From the sequence record PQ374922.1: DNA of 64,000 nucleotides, one strand, 5' to 3'. Under the pieces are notes generated by a model that was given only the letters and a program-made list of their open reading frames with translations, was not told the DNA's origin and did no database searches. Each line of letters starts with the position of its first letter. Within the stretch, counting starts at the first letter, position 1. Shown one piece after another: positions 3,064 to 42,744 of the stretch. The translations under genes were made by a program, and so were the position numbers. Origin of the DNA: a phage.

Positions 3064-3074
3064 CTAAATACCCC
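3064..3074 (+). promoter_or_regulatory. Late-promoter-like motif CTAAATACCCC
   Basis: Recurring box about 30 nt upstream of late-gene ATGs; here followed by complementary TATGGGGTA near the RBS. Confidence 0.6.
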
Positions 3075-3103: not shown

Positions 3104-6100
3104 ATGATTTCTCAATTCAATCAACCACGCGGCTCCACTTCCATAGAAGTTAACAAACAATCTATCGCTCGAAATTTCGGTGTCAAAGAAGACGAAGTCG
3201 TTTATTTCACTGCTGGTATTGATCTCAGTGGATTTAAAGTAATTTATGATGAGTCTACCCAACGGGCCTATTCTCTTCCTTCAGGTATTGTTTCAGGAAC
3301 GACTGCGATAAGTCTGAACGGACAAGCCATCCTCACTCATTCCGCTGGTTCTGTTGACCTCGGAGAATTAGCCGTATCCCGTGAGGAATATGTTACATTG
3401 CCTGGTTCATTTGATACAGGTGTAACTGTTAATTGTAAGAATGAATTAGTTGTCTTTACCGAGGGCAAGTACCGCTGGGATGGTGAATTACCTAAAGAAG
3501 TTCCTGCTGGTTCGACTCCTGAATCGTCTGGCGGCATTGGTGATGGGAAATGGGTCGGTGTTGGGGATGTGGCACTGCGTGGACAGATTTCAGACCCCGA
3601 GGGTGCAACAAAATATCCTGAACTACAAATGGCTCGCTGGCGTGATAATGGCGATCCGCGTGGATGGGGTGTTAAAGGTGATGCTGTACATGATGATACA
3701 GCAGCATTAACGAGCGTATTAAACGACACACCGGTTGGACAAAAGATTAATGGCAATGGGAAGACATATAAGGTCACATCCCTGCCTGACATTAGTAGAT
3801 TCGTCAATACTCGTTTTGTATATGAACGTATTCCTGGTCAGCCGCTTTATTATGCCTCTGAAGAATTTGTTCAGGGTGAGCTGTTCAAAATAACGGACAC
3901 CCCTTATTACAATGCGTGGCCACAAGATAAAGCGTTCGTTTACGACGATGTTATTTACTGTCCGTTCATGGCTAGTGATAGACATGGGGTTAGCAGGCTG
4001 CATGTATCCTGGGTTCGTTCAGGGGATGACGGACAGACCTGGACAACCCCGGAGTGGTTAACCGACCTACATCCTGACTATCCGACAGTTAACTACCACT
4101 GCATGAGTATGGGGGTGATGCGTAATCGTCTCTTTGCGATGATTGAGACCCGTACATTGGCATCTAACGCACTGGTAACCTGTGAGTTGTGGGATCGCCC
4201 CATGTCCCGTAACTACCATCCGACAGGCGGTATCACTAAAGCCGCCAACCAGCCTGTGGCTGTAATTACTATCCCTGAACACGGTCTTTTTGCTGGGGAT
4301 TTTGTTAACTTCTCAAACTCTGGGGTGACTGGAGTTTCAGGGAATATGACTGTAACTTCAGTTATTGACCGCAACACTTTCACAGTTACCACGCCAAATC
4401 AACAGGCGTTTGACCAAAATAATTCTGCCAGCCGTTGGCATATGGGTACATCGTTCCATGAGTCGCCGTGGCGTAAAACCAGCCTTGGGTTAATCCCAAT
4501 GGTGACTGAAGTTCATAGTTTTACCGCCATCAATAATGATTCATTCATGATGGGGTATCACCAAGGTGATGTTGCTCCTCGTGAAGTTGGCATGTTGTAT
4601 TTCCCGGATGCGTTTAATAACCCGGGTTTATACCAAAAACGTCGTATTCCTGCTGATTATGAACCTGATGCGGCAGAGCCTTGCGTTAAATATTTTGATG
4701 GCGTTCTTTATGTCTTAACTCGTGGTACTCGTTCAGATCGTTTGGGGAGTTCGTTGCATCGTAGTCATGATTTGGGCATGACTTGGGAATCACTCAGATT
4801 TCCTAATAATGTTCACCACTCTACGTTGCCGTTCGCTAAAGTCGGTAATGAACTAATCATTTTCGCCACAGAGCGTGCTGATAACGAATGGGAAGCCAAT
4901 GTACCTGATCAACGATACTTTACTTCTTATCCACGAACGTTCTACACGCGAGTGAACCTAGACACCTGGAACCTGGATAATACTCAGTGGGTGAATATCA
5001 CTGACCAGATTTATCAGGGCGGTATTGTCAACTCTGGAGTCGGTGTTGGCTCAGTGGTTGTTAAGGATAGTTATATCTATTACATGTTCGGTGGGGAAGA
5101 CCATCTGAACCCCTGGACATATGGAGATAACTCAGCGAAAGACCCATTCAAATCAGATGGTCATCCCTCAGATTTGTATTGCTACAAAATGAAGATTGGC
5201 CCAGACAATCGTGTTTCCAGGGATTTCAGATATGGTGCTGTACCTGACAGAGCTGTTCCCGTGTTTTTTGATACGAATGGGGTTCGCACTGTCCCTGCGC
5301 CAATGGAATTTACAGGAGATTTGGGTTTAGGTCATGTGACCCTTAGGGCCAGCACCAGTAATAACATTCGCTCTGAAATGCTACTGGAAGGCGAGTATGG
5401 GTTTATTGGGAAATCTGTACCTACTAATAACCCAGCAGGACAGCGCACCATATTTTGCGGTGGAGAAGGAACCAGTTCTTCTACTGGTGCACAGATTACG
5501 CTTTACGGTGCGAATAACACAGCTTCTCGCAGGATAGTTTACAACGGAGCTGAGCACCTGTTCCAGACTGCTGATGTTAAGCCTTATAACGATAACGCTA
5601 TTGCTCTTGGTGGGCCCAGCAACCGTTTCACCACTGCATACCTCGGAAGCAACCCTATTGTTACTTCTAACGGAGAGAAGAAAACGGAGCCGGTAGTTTT
5701 TGATGATGCTTTCCTGGATGCCTGGGGTGACGTTCACTACATCATGTACCAGTGGTTAGATGCTGTTCAACTGAAAGGCAATGAAGCTCGTATTCACTTC
5801 GGGGTTATTGCTCAGCAAATTCGTGATGTATTCATTGCACATGGTCTGATGGACGAAAACAGTACGGATTGTCGTTATGCCGTTCTGTGCTATGACAAGT
5901 ATCCACGGATGACCGATATGGTATTTTCGCACAATGAAATCGTTGAACACACTGACGAGGAGGGTAATGTCACCACCACGGAAGAGCCTGTATTCACTGA
6001 GGTGGTTATTCACGAAGAGGGTGAGGAGTGGGGCGTGCGGCCTGACGGAATTTTCTTTGCTGAAGCTGCTTATCAGCGAAGAAAACTGGAAAGAATCGAA

Positions 6101-25882: not shown

Positions 25883-27577
25883 ATGGCATTCGGTAATGGT
25901 GCATTCGGAAATGGGTTCTTCGGCCTGTTCGGTAGAGGCGGCAAAGTAGAAGCGCCGATTGATACTGACAAGATGGTCACGAACCAAGAAGAGAAGTTGC
26001 TTTCAAAAGCGACTGTTGTTGCGCTGGACGATTCTCAGGATGGCTCGATCATCCTCCAGGGCGGCGCGAACACATTCAATTTCGTTGGTGTTGAGAATGA
26101 GTTGCTCAACGTCAAACAGCTGGTCGAAGAGTACCAGTCTATGGCTCAGCAGCCTGAGATTCGTAAAGCTGTGGATATCATTGTCAACGACGTCGTCACT
26201 TGTGAAGAGGAAGAGACTCCTGTAACCATCAACCTGGAAAAGGTAGATGGCATCACAGACGAAGTCAAAGAGAAGATCACTGACGCATTCAAAGAGATCA
26301 TGCATCTCCTTGACTTTGACAACACGGCGTATCAGAAGATCCGCAAATGGTATATTGAAGGCCGTCAGGCATTCCACGTTGTAGTGGACCCGAAGAACAA
26401 GAAAGCGGGTATCGCCAAACTCATCATGATGGACTCACGCTGTATCCGCCCAGTGTACATCGTTCAAAAGGCGATGCGCGACGGTATCGAAGTCATCAAT
26501 GACGTAAAACTTCAATACTACTACAACCCGAACTACAACCGCAACCAATTCACTGGCCAGTCCGGTACGTCTCAGAACTTCCAACCGTCACAGCAAGAGC
26601 TGGTGTTTGATGATGAGAGCATAGTGTATCTGGACAGTGGTGAAGAGCCTCTGGCGAATGGGGTTGTACCAAGCCTGCTGAACCCAGCTATCCGTCCCCT
26701 GAACAACCTTGTTACAACTGAAGATGCAACGGTGATCTATGCGATCACACGTGCTCCTGAGAAGCGAGCGTTCTATCTCGACGTGGGTACGCTGGGTAAG
26801 AAGTCGGCAGAAGAATACATGCAAGCCATGATGGGTAAATTCAAGAACCGTCTGGCGTATGACCGCACCACTGGTAAGGTGGCTGGCAACACTCATTTGA
26901 TGGGTATCGCTGAGGACTACTGGTTACCACGTCGCGAAGGGCAGAACGCAACCGAGATCTCCAACGTAGGCGGTGGCGACCAACTGGGTCAAATGGATCA
27001 TGTGGTATACTTCCGCGAGAAGCTCTACGAGGCTCTGATGATCCCTAAAAGCCGCCTGCAAGAGGAAGGTTCCATCAACATCGGTGGTTCCAATCTTGCT
27101 GAAATCACACAGGAAGAATTGCGCTTCAACAAGTTCTGTGCGAGCCTGCGCCGTCGTTATTCTTCTGGTATCTTCCTGGAACTTCTGCGTCGCCATCTGA
27201 TATTAAAAGGCATTACAGACCAGGCTGACTGGAATGAGAAGATCAAGCCGTTCGTCAAGTTCGAATTCACTTCTGACAGCTTCATCCGTGAACAACAAGA
27301 GAACGAAATCTTGTCGCAGCGTATGGCGGCTCTCGGTCAGATCGAACCATATATCGGCACTCTCTTCTCTATCGATTTTGCTCAACGCAATCTGCTGCGC
27401 ATGTCTGATGAAGACATCAAAGACCAGCAAGAGAAGATCGCGAAAGAGAAGAAAGAAGGCAAATATCCTGAAGTACAGGCAGATGAGTCCGGCGGCTTCG
27501 GCAGCGGGGAAGTCAGTCCACTGAAATTCAGACCTAACGTCATCCCAGCGACTAACCCTCCTGGTGGTGAAGAATAA
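25883..27577 (+). CDS. Portal protein, gp20-like
   Basis: Region TEDATVIYAITRAPEKRAFYLDVGTL...GIAEDYWLPRREGQNATEISNVGGGDQ closely follows the T4 gp20 core. Confidence 0.9.
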   Translation: MAFGNGAFGNGFFGLFGRGGKVEAPIDTDKMVTNQEEKLLSKATVVALDDSQDGSIILQGGANTFNFVGVENELLNVKQLVEEYQSMAQQPEIRKAVDIIVNDVVTCEEEETPVTINLEKVDGITDEVKEKITDAFKEIMHLLDFDNTAYQKIRKWYIEGRQAFHVVVDPKNKKAGIAKLIMMDSRCIRPVYIVQKAMRDGIEVINDVKLQYYYNPNYNRNQFTGQSGTSQNFQPSQQELVFDDESIVYLDSGEEPLANGVVPSLLNPAIRPLNNLVTTEDATVIYAITRAPEKRAFYLDVGTLGKKSAEEYMQAMMGKFKNRLAYDRTTGKVAGNTHLMGIAEDYWLPRREGQNATEISNVGGGDQLGQMDHVVYFREKLYEALMIPKSRLQEEGSINIGGSNLAEITQEELRFNKFCASLRRRYSSGIFLELLRRHLILKGITDQADWNEKIKPFVKFEFTSDSFIREQQENEILSQRMAALGQIEPYIGTLFSIDFAQRNLLRMSDEDIKDQQEKIAKEKKEGKYPEVQADESGGFGSGEVSPLKFRPNVIPATNPPGGEE

Positions 27578-31112: not shown

Positions 31113-31140
31113 ACAAACCCCGCTTCGGCGGGGTTTTTAT
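31113..31140 (+). terminator. Rho-independent terminator (aaaccccgcttcggcggggttttt)
   Basis: Strong hairpin plus T-tract after the capsid gene. Confidence 0.75.
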
Positions 31141-31193: not shown

Positions 31194-32666
31194 ATGTATC
31201 AGGTAATCTGTAGTGTCTGCCATGAACAGTTCAAAGCATCCAGGAAAGATAAGAAATTTTGTTCAGATGCTTGCAAGACCTTCGCATCGAACACCCTAAA
31301 GAACCTCCCGGAAGGTTTCCTTGAAGCAGTGAATGAATTGTCTGACGAGGAATCATATCGCCAATTTTTCTACAAATATATGTTCACCAAGAACAACAAA
31401 TTGGATATCCAAAAATGCAAATCTGAACTGCTTATGAAGCACATCAATGTAGACCTTTTAGTGTTCGCCAATACCCACAACACCCTACAAGATTTGGCTT
31501 GTAAAGTCACAGCTTGGCTGTACAATAGAACCGTGAAAATATGCCCGGTGTGTTCCAAGGAAACCAACTTTTATATCAATAATAAAGATTACAGAACATA
31601 TTGTTCTGAAGAATGTTATCAGGTTTCTATGTGTAAAGGTGGGATTGGTCGGAAAGCCATAGAGAATTCGAATATATCCAAATACGGAAGCTGCTCCACA
31701 CTACAATTACCTGGTGTGAGGGAGAAGGCGTTGGCAACGTTACAAGAACGTTATGGTGTTGACAACCCTATGAAAAATTCGAACATACTAAAACGTGCGT
31801 TGTTCAGCAATGGTTCTATCAGGAACAAGAAATCTTCTTATGAAAAGGAAATATCCGAGTTTCTCACCTCAATGGGAGTTGTAAACACTGTTTCTGATTA
31901 CAGTATATTATCCGGTAAACAACTGGATATCTATTGCCCTGAACACAAATTGGCGATTGAATTTAATGGCCTGTACTGGCATTCAGAAGTTTTTAAAGAG
32001 AAACATTATCACCTGGAAAAGACTGAAATATGTGAAACTCAGGGTATCCAGTTGATCCACATCTGGGAAGATGAATGGGTTGAGAAACAGGAAGTGGTAA
32101 AATCTCTTCTGAAAGCTAAACTTGGAATTAAAACGCCTGCGTCATATGCTCGCCAACACAAAGTCGTTTGGGGAAATATAAGCGGCTTGAGGGAGTTTTT
32201 AGACAACCACCACATACAAGGTTCCGTTTCTTCCACCCACCATTTGTCGTTAATTGACAAGAGTGGGGCCATACAAGCCGTGATGCTATTCACTAAAAGG
32301 AAAGATGGCCTGGAATTAGTCAGATTTGCCTCTAATGATTGCCACGGGGCATTCAGTAAACTTCTTTCACACTTCAGAAGAAAATTTACCGGCACCAAAA
32401 TCTATTCCTTTGGGGATAGGTGTGTTGTAAGCAGGTTGTCCAACATTTACCTATCCCACGGATTCGTAGAAGAGGAAGTACAGAAGCCAGACTACAAATA
32501 TCACAAGCCTGGCACATTTATGCGTGAGCACAAATTCGGTTTCAGAAAAGGTTCATTTGCTCGCATGGGGTATGACGTAGAAGGCAAAACAGAAAGCCAA
32601 TTAGCAACCGAAGCCGGGTTGGTCAGGATTTGGAATTGTGGACTGATCAAATATGTCTTGAACTAA
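31194..32666 (+). CDS. Zinc-ribbon protein with Vsr/DUF559-like endonuclease motif; putative homing-endonuclease-like selfish gene
   Basis: Two CxxC...CxxxC ribbons (CSVCHEQ..FCSDAC; CPVCSKE..YCSEEC); nuclease-like AIEFNGLYWHSE...IHIWEDEW; AT-rich; RBS ggaggag. Confidence 0.6.
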   Translation: MYQVICSVCHEQFKASRKDKKFCSDACKTFASNTLKNLPEGFLEAVNELSDEESYRQFFYKYMFTKNNKLDIQKCKSELLMKHINVDLLVFANTHNTLQDLACKVTAWLYNRTVKICPVCSKETNFYINNKDYRTYCSEECYQVSMCKGGIGRKAIENSNISKYGSCSTLQLPGVREKALATLQERYGVDNPMKNSNILKRALFSNGSIRNKKSSYEKEISEFLTSMGVVNTVSDYSILSGKQLDIYCPEHKLAIEFNGLYWHSEVFKEKHYHLEKTEICETQGIQLIHIWEDEWVEKQEVVKSLLKAKLGIKTPASYARQHKVVWGNISGLREFLDNHHIQGSVSSTHHLSLIDKSGAIQAVMLFTKRKDGLELVRFASNDCHGAFSKLLSHFRRKFTGTKIYSFGDRCVVSRLSNIYLSHGFVEEEVQKPDYKYHKPGTFMREHKFGFRKGSFARMGYDVEGKTESQLATEAGLVRIWNCGLIKYVLN

Positions 32667-32674
32667 AAGAACAT

Positions 32675-32700
32675 TTCAATAACGGGGCGAAAGGTATCAT
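32675..32700 (+). promoter_or_regulatory. Candidate middle-type promoter: TTCAATAA box, 12-nt spacer, TATCAT
   Basis: Recurring TTCAATAA-N12-TAnnnT arrangement about 30 nt upstream of ATG 32730. Confidence 0.4.
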
Positions 32701-32729
32701 TACCCTCTCTATTAATCGAGGAAATCGCA

Positions 32730-32935: not shown

Positions 32936-32961
32936 TTCAATAACGGGGTGAGAGGTATTAT
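32936..32961 (+). promoter_or_regulatory. Candidate middle-type promoter: TTCAATAA box, 12-nt spacer, TATTAT, with the -10 inside a hairpin
   Basis: Same box arrangement; arms acgggg and ccccgt flank the TATTAT. Confidence 0.4.
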
Positions 32962-32990
32962 TGCCCCGTCTACTATCCGAGGGTTGTACC

Positions 32991-33921: not shown

Positions 33922-34123
33922 ATTTTAAATTTATTCAATAAACGGGGTTTAATTCTTCAATAAACCCCGTATACTTCATTCCATAAGCAGCACAACACTG
34001 ACTCTGAAATGAAGGGACTATCACCAATCTCGTTACAAAGTAACATTGCAGCAATTTGTTCTAAACCTTTGAACAGGGTATGTTAACCGCATACCCTATC
34101 CCCTACAAATAGAGGACTTTACC

Positions 34124-34468
34124 ATGGCAGCAGACACCAAACTGAACAAATCCGTGGAGATCCCCCACATCGTCAAATTCGAAAAGCCGAGTGAGCGCAA
34201 GCCACGCAAAACGCGCCGCCTGGTCACCAAGCTGGATCTTCTGAAACAGAAGTTCGGCGACCACAGCGTGTTCACTCGCATTCGAAATGCAATAAAGGAA
34301 GGGCGAACTGAGCTGGAGCTATATCGACCGAACGGTTCGACACGCGCGTATCAGACCACTGACGGCTTACTGGAACTGATCCGCCTGAGCGGGATGACGA
34401 TCGAACCGCGTTCGTCAGGCACTCCTCTGTGCTCCCTGTACGTAATCGGCAATCTTGGGGCGCTGTGA
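34124..34468 (+). CDS. Hypothetical basic protein (114 aa)
   Basis: RBS agagga; Lys/Arg-rich N-terminal half. Confidence 0.5.
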   Translation: MAADTKLNKSVEIPHIVKFEKPSERKPRKTRRLVTKLDLLKQKFGDHSVFTRIRNAIKEGRTELELYRPNGSTRAYQTTDGLLELIRLSGMTIEPRSSGTPLCSLYVIGNLGAL

Positions 34469-34473
34469 GTTCT

Positions 34474-34896
34474 ATGAAGAAGTATATCGTTCTCATTACG
34501 GGTTCCCGCTCAATCACCGAGCGGGATAAGGTATTCGCCAAGCTGGACGAACTCCTCGATCCTCATGAGGTCTATACACTGATTGAGGGTGAAGCCTCTG
34601 GTGTGGACAAGATTTGCCGTGACTGGGCTGAAATCAATTATGTTCATATCACTCCTATGCCAATACCTCCGAGCTATTATGAAAAGTATGGGAAAGGGAT
34701 GGGCAACAAACGCAATCAGGACATGTTAGACAAGGCATTGGATCTCGTCAGGCAGACCAAGCTGGAAGTGTATCCGATTGCGATGTGGGATGGTTCGTCC
34801 ACTGGCACCCTGGACATGATCAACCGTTGCAAGAAAGCTGGCCTCCCTGTGGATATCACTCTAATGGGTAAGCCGAAGACCAAGCGCCTTTTGTAA
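34474..34896 (+). CDS. SLOG/LOG-like (Rossmann-fold, DUF2493-like) nucleotide-binding protein
   Basis: YIVLITGSR...EGEASGVDK...WDGSSTGTLDMI motifs typical of LOG/SLOG nucleotide-processing domains. Confidence 0.5.
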   Translation: MKKYIVLITGSRSITERDKVFAKLDELLDPHEVYTLIEGEASGVDKICRDWAEINYVHITPMPIPPSYYEKYGKGMGNKRNQDMLDKALDLVRQTKLEVYPIAMWDGSSTGTLDMINRCKKAGLPVDITLMGKPKTKRLL

Positions 34897-34937: not shown

Positions 34938-35108
34938 ATGTTTGTCGTCATCAATCTGTTCTGTTACATCTTCACGGCGTACTTCTTGGGCGCGGTAGGG
35001 ATTGAGACCTACAATGACCTGAAGGATGGGGAATACGCCAACCGAATGGTTTATGTCAAGAAGTTTGTTCGTAAGTTCTGGTCCAACTTCGTTTACAAAC
35101 TACCATGA
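34938..35108 (+). CDS. Small hydrophobic protein (56 aa, one predicted TM helix)
   Basis: ATG preceded by ggag; below ORF-track cut-off; MFVVINLFCYIFTAYFLGAVG hydrophobic N-terminus. Confidence 0.35.
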   Translation: MFVVINLFCYIFTAYFLGAVGIETYNDLKDGEYANRMVYVKKFVRKFWSNFVYKLP

Positions 35109-35111
35109 TCC

Positions 35112-35122
35112 CTAAATACCCC
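35112..35122 (+). promoter_or_regulatory. Late-promoter-like motif CTAAATACCCC with complementary ATGGGGGTAT hairpin arm
   Basis: Exact box about 25 nt upstream of ATG 35147. Confidence 0.55.
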
Positions 35123-35146
35123 CATCATCCATGGGGGTATTTTCTT

Positions 35147-35875
35147 ATGAACACACAGATCTATGACGCCCTATCACAGGGCAACGCCTTTACCAATCCT
35201 CTCCCGTCCCTCAGCAGCGCCTCACAGGGGTTAATCACCAGTGGTAAGGCGACTACAGCGTCACTGGCTAACACCGGAAATGCGCAGATTCAGGAAGCGC
35301 TGACGGCAGGTGGGTTGACTACAGCCAAACTCAACGAATCTACAGCAATGTTCAACTCAGCCAACAACAGCATCACTACTTTGAACAACTATGGCGACCA
35401 GTCAGTGAACGAGGCATATTCCCGCATCGGTACATCTGTGTCGTATAAGTCCGCCCTGAAGTCTATAGGTCGAGAACCGAACAACTGTGATCTGATCAAT
35501 AATGCATTTGGGGTTATTCAGAACCTCGGCAAACAGTGGATCAACACCATGCAAAGTGTTCTCACAACTATCACAAACAAGATGAATGAGCTGGCTGAGT
35601 TGGTAGCTCAGGGTGTCAGTGCTGGTCTTGATGCTATTCGGGCACTGGCTGCTGAAGTTACTCAAGCCATCGACACTGCTGTCGCATCAGTAGCCTCTAT
35701 TGCTCAGGACATCACGAACGGTATTGCAGCAGAGTTAGCCCATATCCAAGACATGGTTGGTAAGTGTCTTAACTTCTCTTTTGCCAACGTGATCTCAGAG
35801 TGGGCGAAAGATATCTGCGCCGGAGGTGTCATCAACAGCATTGGTTCCGATAATCTGAAGAACGCGCTGAAGTAA
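35147..35875 (+). CDS. Ser/Thr/Asn/Ala-rich hypothetical late protein (243 aa), possibly virion-associated
   Basis: Late-promoter box directly upstream; low-complexity alpha-helical-looking sequence; start chosen downstream of the promoter box (ORF track ATG 35105 overlaps the box). Confidence 0.5.
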   Translation: MNTQIYDALSQGNAFTNPLPSLSSASQGLITSGKATTASLANTGNAQIQEALTAGGLTTAKLNESTAMFNSANNSITTLNNYGDQSVNEAYSRIGTSVSYKSALKSIGREPNNCDLINNAFGVIQNLGKQWINTMQSVLTTITNKMNELAELVAQGVSAGLDAIRALAAEVTQAIDTAVASVASIAQDITNGIAAELAHIQDMVGKCLNFSFANVISEWAKDICAGGVINSIGSDNLKNALK

Positions 35876-37565: not shown

Positions 37566-38312
37566 ATGGCATCCCTCCAAGATCTACGCAAGCTGAACGA
37601 CTTCGAAAACCGTCATTACACATTCCAGCAATACGAACTTCCTTACAAGGAACTGGAGTGTGTTACGACGGAGAATGGTCGTCATTACGTTTCACCGTCT
37701 GGTGTAAAACTGACATCCGTCACGACTATGCTGGGACGCACTGGAGATCATGAATGGCTTGAGTCTTGGAGGAAGAAGCTGGGCGCAGAGGCCGCTGACC
37801 TTGAGACCATGCGCTGTGCTGACCGAGGGGAGAAGCTGCACCTTGCGTGTGAACTGTATCTAAAGAACCGCCCAATGAAAGAAGTGTTGGAAGCGGCTGG
37901 CGAATACATGTTCATGTTCAAGCAGCTGTTCCCTTACCTGAACAAGATGACAAAGATCTATGCTCAGGAGATCCCATTATATAGCGAGGTGCTTGGTCTT
38001 GCAGGTCGTGTAGACCTTATCGGGGTTTATGAGGGTAAACCTGCTGTCATCGACTTCAAGACATCGAACACCATGAAGACGCGGGGCATGATCGAGGATT
38101 ACAGTATCCAGCTATGCTTATATTCGGTCATGTTCCAGCAGATGTTCGGCGTCAAGATCACCCGCCTCATCAACGTGATCGCCAACGAGTCTTCCCCTCT
38201 ACCAACCGTCATTGAGTTCAACCGTGATGACATTCTGACAAAGATGTTTGAGCGTGTTCGTCTGTATCATCGCATGGATAAAGAACAAAACGGAGTCTGG
38301 CCGGATCACTAA
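37566..38312 (+). CDS. PD-(D/E)xK superfamily nuclease (exonuclease-like)
   Basis: Motifs GRVDLIGVY (Asp) and PAVIDFKTS (D-x-K) in beta-strand context. Confidence 0.55.
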   Translation: MASLQDLRKLNDFENRHYTFQQYELPYKELECVTTENGRHYVSPSGVKLTSVTTMLGRTGDHEWLESWRKKLGAEAADLETMRCADRGEKLHLACELYLKNRPMKEVLEAAGEYMFMFKQLFPYLNKMTKIYAQEIPLYSEVLGLAGRVDLIGVYEGKPAVIDFKTSNTMKTRGMIEDYSIQLCLYSVMFQQMFGVKITRLINVIANESSPLPTVIEFNRDDILTKMFERVRLYHRMDKEQNGVWPDH

Positions 38313-40577: not shown

Positions 40578-41246
40578 ATGCAAGAGATCACTCTCTCCGA
40601 ACGTACACTTCAGTTGCTGGCCAACTTTGAGACCATCAACCCATCTATCGTTCTGACACCGGGCAAGATGCTGCGCAGTATTAATGATTCTTCTACTGTG
40701 ATCGCCGTGGCGCAGATCGAAGAAGACTTCCCGTTTGAGTTCCCGATTCTGGACCTGACCAAACTTCTGGCCATCCAGCGCCTACCTTCCTTCAAAGGTG
40801 CCAAAGCCGAATTCCATCAGGACTACATCCTGTTGAAAGGTGAAAGTTCTCAGCTGCAATTCTGGCGTTCTGCTAAAGAACTCACGGTTGTCCCGGCTGA
40901 TACTATCGAACTGCCGTCTGTTGACTTTGAAGCGATCATCACTCCAGAGAAGATGAAAGAACTGACCCGCGCCTGTTCTACCCTCGGACATAAGACTGTG
41001 CGCCTGGTTGCTCAGGGTGGCAAAACTCGCCTGGTTGCAACCACCACTACCCTGGACAACTCCAACAACTACACTGTTGAGCTGGGTGAAACCGCGCTGC
41101 CGGACTTCGTAATGCCGCTGGATGTTGCCAACCTGAAAATGATCGAAGGCAACTACACTCTGCGTGCCTGTGCTGATCTACAGATGGTGAACTTCCAATC
41201 ATCCGACGCGACGATCAATTACTTCGTCGGCGCACAGATTGAGTAA
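40578..41246 (+). CDS. Sliding clamp, gp45-like
   Basis: N-terminal TLQLLANFETINPSIVL matches T4 gp45 TTALLKNFATINSGIML; RBS gagga; optimal-codon-rich. Confidence 0.9.
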   Translation: MQEITLSERTLQLLANFETINPSIVLTPGKMLRSINDSSTVIAVAQIEEDFPFEFPILDLTKLLAIQRLPSFKGAKAEFHQDYILLKGESSQLQFWRSAKELTVVPADTIELPSVDFEAIITPEKMKELTRACSTLGHKTVRLVAQGGKTRLVATTTTLDNSNNYTVELGETALPDFVMPLDVANLKMIEGNYTLRACADLQMVNFQSSDATINYFVGAQIE

Positions 41247-41327: not shown

Positions 41328-42317
41328 ATGTCTAATATCACAATTGTAAAAGACCAGTATGCATGGGAAAACCGCTTCCGCCCTGACAACCTGGACGAGA
41401 TTATCATCCCTCAAGACGTCCGCGCTAAAATCCATGGCTACATCACCAGCGGCAACGGCAACATCCCGTCTATGCTGTTCTACTCCCCTCAGCCTGGTAC
41501 TGGCAAGACTACCTCCGCCCTGGCCGTGTGTAACGAGATCGGTTGTAAGCAACCACTGATGATCAACGCATCCCTGGACAACAGCATCGACGTTATCCGT
41601 GACCGCGTGATTCAGTACTCTACTGGTGTGAGCGTATTCGGTGGTCGCAAAGTCGTTATCCTCGACGAAGTAGAGCGTCTGTCTATGGCGGCACAGGAGT
41701 CGCTGAAGGGTATTGTGGAGAAGGTCTCCAAGAACTGTTCATTCATCCTGACCACCAACGCCAAGCAACGTGTGAACGAACCTCTGCGCTCTCGTTGCCG
41801 TGAAATCGACTTTATCTGGAATGAGACCGAGGCTGATGAGGTCAAACTTCAGTTCATGCGCCGCTGTGCTGAAATCCTTCGCTGCGAAGGTGTTGAGTAT
41901 GACCCTCCTGTGTTGGCTGCTATTGTCAAGCGCCATTTCCCTGATAACCGCCGCATCATGGGTGTTCTACAGGATAACGTCACCACTTACGGCAAGATCG
42001 ACGAACGTGCACTGGCTGTGTTAAAATCGGCCGATATGGGCATGTTGGTGAATATGTTGAAGGATAATGACTGGGCTGGGATGAAGCAGTGGGTGACCGA
42101 CAACCAGAACTATATCACTGAAGACTTCTATTCCCGCTTCTTCCAGTTCTGTGTACCACAGGATAAAGAGAAGCAAATGTTGGTTCAGAATGAGTCTATC
42201 CCTGATCTGGTATGTGTATGTGGTCAGTCTCAGATTGAACACCGTCAAGTCGGCGATGTCTGGCTGCATGCTGTGTTTTTCCTGACCAATGTCATGCTCA
42301 ACATCAAGTGGAAGTGA
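41328..42317 (+). CDS. Clamp loader large subunit, gp44-like AAA+ ATPase
   Basis: Walker A PQPGTGKTTSA, Walker B ILDEVE, sensor region; follows gp45 as in T4. Confidence 0.85.
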   Translation: MSNITIVKDQYAWENRFRPDNLDEIIIPQDVRAKIHGYITSGNGNIPSMLFYSPQPGTGKTTSALAVCNEIGCKQPLMINASLDNSIDVIRDRVIQYSTGVSVFGGRKVVILDEVERLSMAAQESLKGIVEKVSKNCSFILTTNAKQRVNEPLRSRCREIDFIWNETEADEVKLQFMRRCAEILRCEGVEYDPPVLAAIVKRHFPDNRRIMGVLQDNVTTYGKIDERALAVLKSADMGMLVNMLKDNDWAGMKQWVTDNQNYITEDFYSRFFQFCVPQDKEKQMLVQNESIPDLVCVCGQSQIEHRQVGDVWLHAVFFLTNVMLNIKWK

Positions 42318-42321
42318 TATT

Positions 42322-42744
42322 ATGGCCGCCCTTGGATTGTTCGATTACCTGGCTGCTCTGAACAGCAGCAAAGAAAACCTTTTGCGGTCTGATGACCCAG
42401 AAGTGTTGAAAGGATTCGACCCGTTTATGACGCGGCGTGGTTTAGCTCAGAGCAAAGACACTCTAGTGGCTGCGCAACAGATGAATAAGCTACATGCTAT
42501 CACTCCATGGATGCAATGGTCATATGCCTTTTACACCATTCCGGCTCGGAAACGCTACGACAAATGGTCTAAGAAAGGTCCGATTGATCCTGACGTGAAG
42601 TTACTCTCAGAGTACTTCTACATCAGCATGGAGAAGGCATCGGAGTACGTCCGTTTCTTGCCGAAGGAAGTCCTGGCCGAGATACGCGAGAAGATGAGAC
42701 GCACTGAGCTGAACGCCAAAGCGAAACCGCGCAAGGCTAAGTAG
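42322..42744 (+). CDS. Clamp loader small subunit, gp62-like
   Basis: ARKRYDKWSK resembles T4 gp62 RGKRYGKWAK; position after gp44. Confidence 0.7.
   Translation: MAALGLFDYLAALNSSKENLLRSDDPEVLKGFDPFMTRRGLAQSKDTLVAAQQMNKLHAITPWMQWSYAFYTIPARKRYDKWSKKGPIDPDVKLLSEYFYISMEKASEYVRFLPKEVLAEIREKMRRTELNAKAKPRKAK

Follow-up and report, generated by a model that had tools for sequence, protein, structure and literature searches.

A stand-alone YAcAr-family SLOG protein of Ackermannviridae phages: a tentative DprA-like role and a clade-specific tail that resembles the end of the gp33 homolog

The question raised by the locus considered here is what a phage does with a small, stand-alone SLOG protein, that is, whether such a protein works on DNA, on host signaling nucleotides or in nucleotide metabolism. 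The gene (hereafter, the SLOG gene) lies on the plus strand of a 64,000-nucleotide (nt) stretch of phage DNA (sequence record PQ374922.1; below, the window), from the ATG at 34474 to the TAA ending at 34896, and encodes a protein of 140 amino acids (aa; 15.9 kDa, isoelectric point (pI) 8.8). Escherichia phage YX22 shares 99.9% identity with the region, and other Agtrevirus phages (Ackermannviridae) share 88-97%. The mechanically delimited open reading frame (ORF) has an alternative GTG start at 34429 that would overlap the upstream gene; nearly all homologs begin at the ATG equivalent to 34474.

The protein matches PF10686 (E = 3.6e-11; 43.2 bits against a gathering cut-off of 28.2; residues 5-58 on profile positions 2-55 of 66), that is, the YAcAr family (YspA, cpYpsA-related SLOG family; formerly DUF2493; "Mycobacteriophage D29 Gp61" in InterPro), and the PHROGs family phrog_289 (E = 1e-39). 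The NCBIfam scan gave nothing useful, the PADLOC scan gave no match, and nothing was retrieved from the PDB when the protein sequence alone served as the query. Judged from the two scores, from homologs of conserved length that span 44-95% identity and from motifs that fall on invariant or nearly invariant alignment columns, the ORF is a genuine conserved phage gene, with matches far beyond chance. The initial annotation had described the product as a SLOG/LOG-like Rossmann-fold protein of the early region. Structure prediction and fold comparison, both of which were run, uphold the SLOG/Rossmann fold together with the PF10686 match: the alignment-based AlphaFold model (predicted local distance difference test (pLDDT) 94.2, predicted TM-score (pTM) 0.86) has the order beta-alpha-beta-alpha-beta-alpha-beta-alpha-beta, and the Foldseek neighbors in the PDB are the CARF-type domain of Cam1, which comes first (E = 1.9e-4), followed by DprA and ShosA. 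Among viral predicted structures, the neighbors are DUF2493/YspA proteins of many phages, pandoraviruses, marseilleviruses and one archaeal virus. As modeled, the protein is a member of the SLOG superfamily, a five-stranded Rossmannoid whose nearest structural neighbors are SLOG proteins.

DUF2493/YAcAr is among the most widespread uncharacterized small phage protein families and is also represented in giant and archaeal viruses. A profile search with the family retrieved 26,197 representative clusters (50% identity) at E<=0.001 and 7,656 at E<=1e-10. By tblastn, relatives of the protein are detected in 957 of 50,697 phage records, including 296 mycobacteriophages, where they carry the annotation "DprA-like DNA processing chain A"; a 95%-identical protein is named YspA/cpYpsA-related SLOG domain protein in UniRef. 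The YAcAr family was reportedly defined by Burroughs et al. in 2015. A survey of viral SLOG domains (Iyer et al., 2022; PMC9503650) found them in 7% of small, 19% of medium and 31% of jumbo phages, predicted computationally that they sense or degrade signals of the cyclic ADP-ribose (cADPR) type, and called them experimentally uncharacterized. With this survey in existence, the family assignment of the SLOG gene is correct but already known; no experimental work on a stand-alone phage YAcAr/DUF2493 protein was found in the literature. The copy described here represents no new kind of system, and its value is that a phage of E. coli/Salmonella provides a tractable, well-conserved representative, whose clade-specific tail hints at a partner.

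Conservation within the family was assessed in an alignment of 84 diverse YAcAr members. G10, G39, G43, D45, G77, R80, N81, S109, G111 and T112 are invariant, and at least 90% of the members share R12, A41, A76, M84 and M115; the motifs ITGSR, GEASGVDK and WDGSSTGT, which had been singled out from the sequence in the initial annotation, are all present and coincide with invariant or nearly invariant columns. The YAcAr motif set, namely GxR (after strand 1), GxAxGxD, GxxRN and SxGT, is found in full in the protein, and the conserved residues are all located in loops or helix starts after strands 1-4, which form the nucleotide-holding edge of SLOG and Rossmannoid domains. All four blocks are encoded on the plus strand: ITGSR (34495-34509; residues 8-12) in the loop that follows strand 1, GEASGVDK (34588-34611; residues 39-46) after strand 2, GNKRN (34702-34716), with G77, R80 and N81, where the long helix alpha3 begins, and WDGSSTGT (34786-34809; residues 105-112) after strand 4, at the position of the LOG motif PGGxGTxxE. 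Both the size and these four blocks are shared with YAcAr (PF10686) proteins in general, and phage members are typically stand-alone proteins as well.

The LOG-like enzymology that had been part of the initial description does not survive this comparison. In the SLOG protein, the LOG signature PGGxGTxxE reads GSSTGTLDM, with the nearly invariant Met115 in the position of the catalytic Glu of LOG and PpnN (PF03641), and the PF03641 profile (LOG/lysine-decarboxylase-like) has no match to the protein at E<=1; on these two grounds, a LOG-type enzyme was rejected. Because the LOG catalytic Glu is absent, the protein would be expected to bind its ligand rather than to cleave it in the LOG manner. 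We commit to describing it as a non-LOG, predicted ligand-binding, stand-alone SLOG module of the YAcAr/DUF2493 family.

When the YAcAr family profile was compared with solved structures, DprA proteins were the sole sequence-level matches, and weak ones (E = 0.019-0.06). The alignment covers GSR, which falls on GSR or GTR of DprA, and GxAxGxD, which falls on SGxAxGID; both motifs were aligned in the same way when E. coli Smf was compared by hhalign and by hmmsearch. In these alignments, made with hidden Markov models (HMMs), G10-S11-R12 of ITGSR is matched with the G-S/T/A-R motif of DprA that binds single-stranded DNA (ssDNA), namely GSR (S. pneumoniae DprA; E. coli Smf) or GTR (H. pylori DprA, R52); GEASGVDK corresponds to DprA SG(L)A(K/R)GID, and WDGSSTGT aligns weakly to DprA SxG(T/S). 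In H. pylori DprA, the G-S/T/A-R motif (R52) and the F/L/Y-x-x-R-N/D motif (R143, N144) form a small pocket for one ssDNA base, and the R52E substitution lowers the affinity for ssDNA ~315-fold (PMC3950713). The GNKRN block is a candidate equivalent of the x-x-R-N/D base-pocket motif of DprA: R80-N81 is invariant and, as in DprA, is located in the helix before the SxGT strand, with Gly or Ala at the position of the DprA aromatic residue. The block after strand 2 also carries the GxD/E signature of the YpsA clade, which in YpsA is the substrate-binding signature (PMC6459960), in the form of G43-V44-D45, with invariant G and D.

The new point of the analysis is the clade-specific tail KTKRLL and its likeness to the end of the gp33 homolog. 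Compared with other YAcAr proteins, the Ackermannviridae clade adds a ~10-residue insertion in helix alpha3 and a basic-hydrophobic tail, GKPKTKRLL (34867-34893, plus strand). All members of the clade end in GKPKTKRL[LIF], with K135, K137 and R138 invariant and L139 present in at least 90%, and a tail of this type is absent from the other YAcAr proteins (84 diverse members). The tail is predicted to be flexible; it is disordered in the model, with pLDDT <50 at residues 137-140. The homolog of the late-transcription coactivator gp33 (PF16805) ends in KSKKL[VIF], which is invariant in 18 homologs down to 66% identity, and this end falls at the end of the PF16805 profile and, in T4 gp33, on the C-terminal region. 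The C-terminal end of T4 gp33 is its sliding-clamp-binding end, and the presence of the basic KSKKL[VIF] instead of T4 TLDFLL suggests a re-tuned clamp-binding interface in Ackermannviridae. The gp33 gene of the relative PQ306799 is found at 42077-42322 of the retrieved piece, and the Ackermannviridae gp33 has 81 aa compared with 112 aa in T4. A six-frame scan of ORFs in the window and in 150 kb from a relative retrieved only four that end in [KR][KR]L[LVIFM]: the SLOG protein, gp33, a hypothetical protein and, within the portal gene, a spurious ORF. The likeness of the two tails, combined with the rarity of the motif among ORF ends, suggests that KTKRLL of the SLOG protein and KSKKLV of gp33 might share a docking partner, possibly the gp45 homolog (40578-41246).

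Synteny of the SLOG gene extends to all the Ackermannviridae genera that were sampled (Agtrevirus, Kuttervirus and Miltonvirus, in addition to diverged metagenomic relatives): the gene order is identical in Kuttervirus CBA120 and Miltonvirus (Serratia phage) Kevin and is also observed, with small rearrangements, in metagenomic relatives at 42-53% identity. Between Agtrevirus and Kuttervirus, the SLOG protein is 77% identical, compared with ~60% for the neighboring DUF7217 protein. By virtue of this synteny and this difference in identity, the gene behaves in a core-like manner and not as a variable accessory gene. In annotated relatives, it is preceded by genes for the portal, prohead core, protease, scaffold, major capsid protein, an HNH homing endonuclease and six small unknown proteins, and is followed by a 56-aa hydrophobic ORF, DUF7217, DUF7424 (on the opposite strand), the gp3 tail completion protein, UvsY, an exonuclease, UvsW, the clamp and the clamp loader.

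Beyond Ackermannviridae, stand-alone YAcAr genes are found in arrays of small non-structural genes on phage-like contigs, next to genes for thymidylate kinase, deoxynucleoside monophosphate (dNMP) kinase, PD-(D/E)XK nuclease, ERF and Fic proteins. The YAcAr gene adjoins the DNA polymerase gene in a Jedunavirus, comes after the gene for RNA polymerase in Klebsiella phage RCIP0046 (42.8 kb), and in a cluster A mycobacteriophage is located in the replication arm (DnaB/primase/EndoVII), directly after a phosphoribosyltransferase (PRTase) gene. In Mycobacterium phage Dixon, genes 74-73 (coordinates 3248-4363 of the retrieved piece) encode a PRTase followed by the "DprA-like" YAcAr protein, an arrangement that echoes the ShosTA defense pair, which consists of a PRTase toxin and a DprA-like antitoxin. 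Multidomain members include proteins with tandem YAcAr repeats and a protein that combines NADAR-DarT1 with three YAcAr domains and DUF4326; a C-terminal DUF2493 is present in HelB, the accessory SF1B helicase of phage ICP1, and a YspA domain in Streptomyces homologs of DciA. Fusions of family members to HNH, 3'-5' exonuclease and SF1 helicase domains have been described (PMC9503650), and fusion to or co-occurrence with Macro, NADAR and Nudix domains is on record as well (PMC9503650; PMC7824862). These contexts and fusions fit a DNA-binding module and a nucleotide sensor regulating DNA enzymes alike. The tandem repeats within single polypeptides suggest, by analogy with DprA, that YAcAr domains might act as dimers.

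On account of the relatedness of the motifs to those of DprA, the fusion of family members to DNA enzymes, conservation like that of a core gene and the docking-type tail, we tentatively favor a DNA-associated, DprA-like binding role over that of a sponge or hydrolase of an ADP-ribose (ADPR)-derived signal, with somewhat less than even confidence. The placement of YAcAr genes in replication and recombination modules elsewhere, that is, by the DNA polymerase gene, in the DnaB/primase/EndoVII arm and by ERF, supports this role. The SLOG protein would then work as a minimal DprA during phage replication or recombination; its pocket might accept a nucleotide or base of ssDNA, or a nucleotide adduct on DNA, and the flexible C-terminal tail KTKRLL would dock the protein on a partner. 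The partner could be the phage sliding clamp, given that the gp33 homolog ends in the look-alike KSKKLV at the position of the clamp-binding end of T4 gp33. The most specific form of this scenario is a clamp-tethered mini-DprA, in which KTKRLL copies the KSKKLV end of gp33, docks on the gp45-type clamp and thereby would put the nucleotide/ssDNA pocket at replication forks or late-transcription complexes. We consider this form unlikely; if true, it would define a new class of sliding-clamp client and assign the first role to a stand-alone DUF2493 protein.

Several observations weigh against the DprA-like role and against its extension to the clamp. The equivalence of R80-N81 with R143-N144 of DprA was drawn by eye from motif order and topology, and the HMM alignment did not recover it. 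The DprA profile PF02481 has no match to the SLOG protein at E<=1, and the few YAcAr family members that give PF02481 matches do so only below the threshold. At ~130 aa, the YAcAr domain is ~75 residues shorter than that of DprA (~205) and lacks one beta-alpha unit, and the aromatic platform of DprA (F140) has no counterpart in the SLOG protein. Furthermore, DprA/Smf, the bacterial ssDNA-binding RecA loader, has SAM or winged-helix flanking domains, which the SLOG protein lacks. With regard to the tail, the resemblance to gp33 was noticed post hoc, the clamp-binding ends of T4 are hydrophobic and acidic (TLDFLL), not basic, and the tails of the Ackermannviridae DNA polymerase and gp55 are devoid of the motif. 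Finally, the SLOG gene is located 2.2 kb upstream of the UvsY-exonuclease-UvsW genes, which would fit the role, but late genes intervene between SLOG and UvsY, so that the adjacency may mean little.

The best-surviving alternative to the DprA-like role is counter-defense, which had been proposed in the initial annotation. Under this scenario, which has also been put forward computationally for viral YpsA-like SLOG domains (PMC9503650), the SLOG pocket would bind (as a sponge) or hydrolyze a host NAD+-derived signal, such as 2'/3'cADPR, His-ADPR, N7-cADPR of the Thoeris type or another ADPR derivative, and thus blunt abortive infection. We regard this as possible but doubtful. The pocket residues are invariant and polar, as would suit such a function, one family member is the fusion with NADAR-DarT1 and DUF4326 mentioned above, and the literature not only records the links to Macro, NADAR and Nudix but also predicts degradation of cADPR by viral SLOG domains (PMC9503650; PMC7824862). 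The phage family itself uses NAD+ for ADP-ribosylation, since the annotation of the close relative PQ306799 includes an Alt/Mod-like RNA polymerase ADP-ribosylase gene (coordinates 26672-27175 of the retrieved piece), and the SLOG gene, which has no late promoter motif, could be made early. These points have to be set against the literature, in which no experimental support for such a function was found for any phage YAcAr protein, and against the fold searches, where the phage signal sponges Tad1, Tad2, Acb2 and Acb4 are absent among the matches listed. Across 150 kb of the relative's 152.5-kb record, the annotation lists no Macro, NADAR or Nudix product. Anti-defense loci are typically patchy accessory genes, whereas the SLOG gene is syntenic and core-like throughout the phage family, with relatives in hundreds of mycobacteriophages; the LOG-type catalytic Glu is absent, and a soluble sponge has no obvious need of a conserved docking-type tail. 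ThsA, the Thoeris effector sensor (PDB 7UXS, with 3'cADPR), differs in that its SLOG sensor is fused to an effector, whereas the phage protein is stand-alone and has 140 aa; no sequence-level match between the two proteins was found. Neither an effector nor a TIR producer is encoded beside the SLOG gene, the neighbors being small unknown genes, DUF7217 and DUF7424 without a PADLOC match. Establishing whether these proteins remove ADPR signals or do DNA-related work as a cut-down version of DprA would allow thousands of genes to be annotated together, and the outcome would add either a new anti-Thoeris-type tool or a new accessory factor of replication or recombination.

Much less probable is a nucleotide-pool enzyme, that is, a LOG/PpnN-like or nucleoside-deoxyribosyltransferase-like N-glycosidase that would act on (d)NMPs and might remove a canonical nucleotide. 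Ackermannviridae replace thymidine with hypermodified derivatives of 5-hydroxymethyldeoxyuridine (5-hmdU). The Met in place of the PGGxGTxxE Glu and the missing PF03641 match speak against such an enzyme, as do the location of the SLOG gene away from the nucleotide-metabolism cluster of the genome (thymidylate-synthase-like and dNMP kinase genes) and the presence of the family in very many phages beyond Ackermannviridae. Slimmer still is the chance that the protein is an antitoxin mimic, a ShosA-like (DprA-like) protein that would neutralize the PRTase toxin of a Shosta-type host defense: PADLOC reports no match, the annotation shows no PRTase in the vicinity or in the rest of the 150 kb of the relative record, the ShosA chain has 308 residues compared with the 140 aa of the SLOG protein, and ShosA acts by dimerization and RecA binding, features that are not identifiable in the SLOG sequence. 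Least credible of all is a modulator of host physiology like Bacillus YpsA (DUF1273; PDB 2NX2), a cell-division inhibitor when overproduced, to which the SLOG protein is 15% identical, with no GpsB context, a different host range, no match to a YpsA-family HMM (PF10686 alone matched) and, as the Pfam name cpYpsA implies, a fold that in YAcAr is described as circularly permuted relative to YpsA.

Returning to the locus itself, the SLOG gene directly follows the phrog_4663 gene (34124-34468, plus strand; 114 aa, pI 10.1), whose stop codon is only 5 nt before the SLOG start, so that the two genes are probably co-transcribed and translationally coupled. The claim that the gene belongs to an early region stands in part. 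On the map, it has the head genes on one side and the tail-completion/UvsY genes on the other, in an island of small genes amid late modules, which does not agree with an early region as usually understood; the promoter-like elements, with no late motif and sigma70-like elements upstream, would be in line with non-late expression. The motif CTAAATAC occurs in 7 copies in the window compared with 1.09 expected, all on the plus strand. The copies at 3064, 6440, 18147, 25238 and 28791 precede large ORFs of the structural (tail/head) part by 25-45 nt, and the copy at 38309 precedes UvsW by 32 nt; the motif looks like the late-promoter element of the phage family. The T4 late promoter TATAAATA was uninformative as a timing marker (1 copy compared with 0.95 expected), and the family motif CTAAATAC was used instead. 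No copy of CTAAATAC is found ahead of the phrog_4663-SLOG pair.

The pair is divided from the preceding small-gene operon by a terminator-like hairpin (33942-33970, plus strand) with a 10-bp stem, an RNA folding energy of -14.2 kcal/mol and a z-score of -4.15. Another motif, TTCAATAA, is present in 10 copies, compared with 2.05 expected, four of them within 1.3 kb upstream of the pair, where sigma70-like elements that contain this motif cluster. Two of the TTCAATAA copies belong to near-identical ~30-nt sigma70-like elements (ATTTCA/TTTTCA-N16-TATCAT/TATTAT) at 32675-32710 and 32936-32970, ahead of small genes, and the copies at 33934 and 33956 flank or enter the hairpin. The lack of CTAAATAC ahead of the pair, the strong hairpin and the upstream sigma70-like elements with TTCAATAA make non-late expression of the SLOG gene plausible. 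No transcriptome study of Ackermannviridae was found in the literature; virion mass spectrometry of phage AG3 covered six gel bands and did not address the SLOG protein.

The phrog_4663 protein is very basic, with an N-terminal third rich in Lys and Arg, and no relatives were detectable in Pfam or the PDB. It was rejected as an obligate partner of the SLOG protein because unrelated ORFs occupy its place in diverged relatives. Searches of solved structures with DUF7217, DUF7424 and phrog_4663 yielded nothing, or low-complexity noise only. Downstream of the SLOG gene, the small ORF phrog_4845 (34938-35108, plus strand), which encodes 56 aa with a hydrophobic N-terminus, is located between SLOG and DUF7217 and is syntenic in CBA120 and Serratia phage Kevin.

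Some databases and annotations connect the SLOG gene with the DUF7217 gene, and this connection appears to be spurious. The match to phrog_289 carries the label "GTP-binding domain", which was rejected for the SLOG protein: inspection of the sequence revealed no Walker A motif GxxxxGK[ST], that is, no P-loop, and the label stems from a composite profile that spans both SLOG and DUF7217. The source of this profile is a 475-aa ORF of Salmonella phage 38 (KR296692.1, 59288-60715; also an entry in BFVD), in a record with many frameshift-split genes, and alignment with CBA120 shows that the fusion arises from seven small indels. The same label has been wrongly passed on to DUF7217 genes in newer pharokka-style annotations. 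A Rosetta-stone link between SLOG and DUF7217, as phrog_289 and the 475-aa entry would imply, was rejected as a frameshift artifact because the fusion is indel-made, DUF7217 has a late-type motif of its own, and DUF7217 is found without SLOG in Felixounavirus.

The late-promoter-type copy of CTAAATAC in question (35112-35119, plus strand) falls within the mechanically delimited DUF7217 ORF (35105-35875) and marks the DUF7217 gene as a putative separate late unit. Together with the Pfam and PHROG alignments, which begin at residue 15 of the ORF, the motif indicates that the true DUF7217 start is probably the ATG at 35147. Among relatives, DUF7217 is annotated inconsistently, with 247, 256 or 242 aa. 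In Felixounavirus (Escherichia phage Andreotti, coordinates 3411-4208 of the retrieved piece), the DUF7217 gene is located within a tRNA cluster just upstream of the terminase gene, without SLOG, and its product is sometimes called a putative membrane protein. Further upstream in the window, a gene for an HNH/Vsr-like homing endonuclease of ~490 aa (31197-32666) comes directly after the gene for the major capsid protein and the strong terminator of that gene (31115-31136), and several further homing endonucleases are dispersed among the core genes of relatives.

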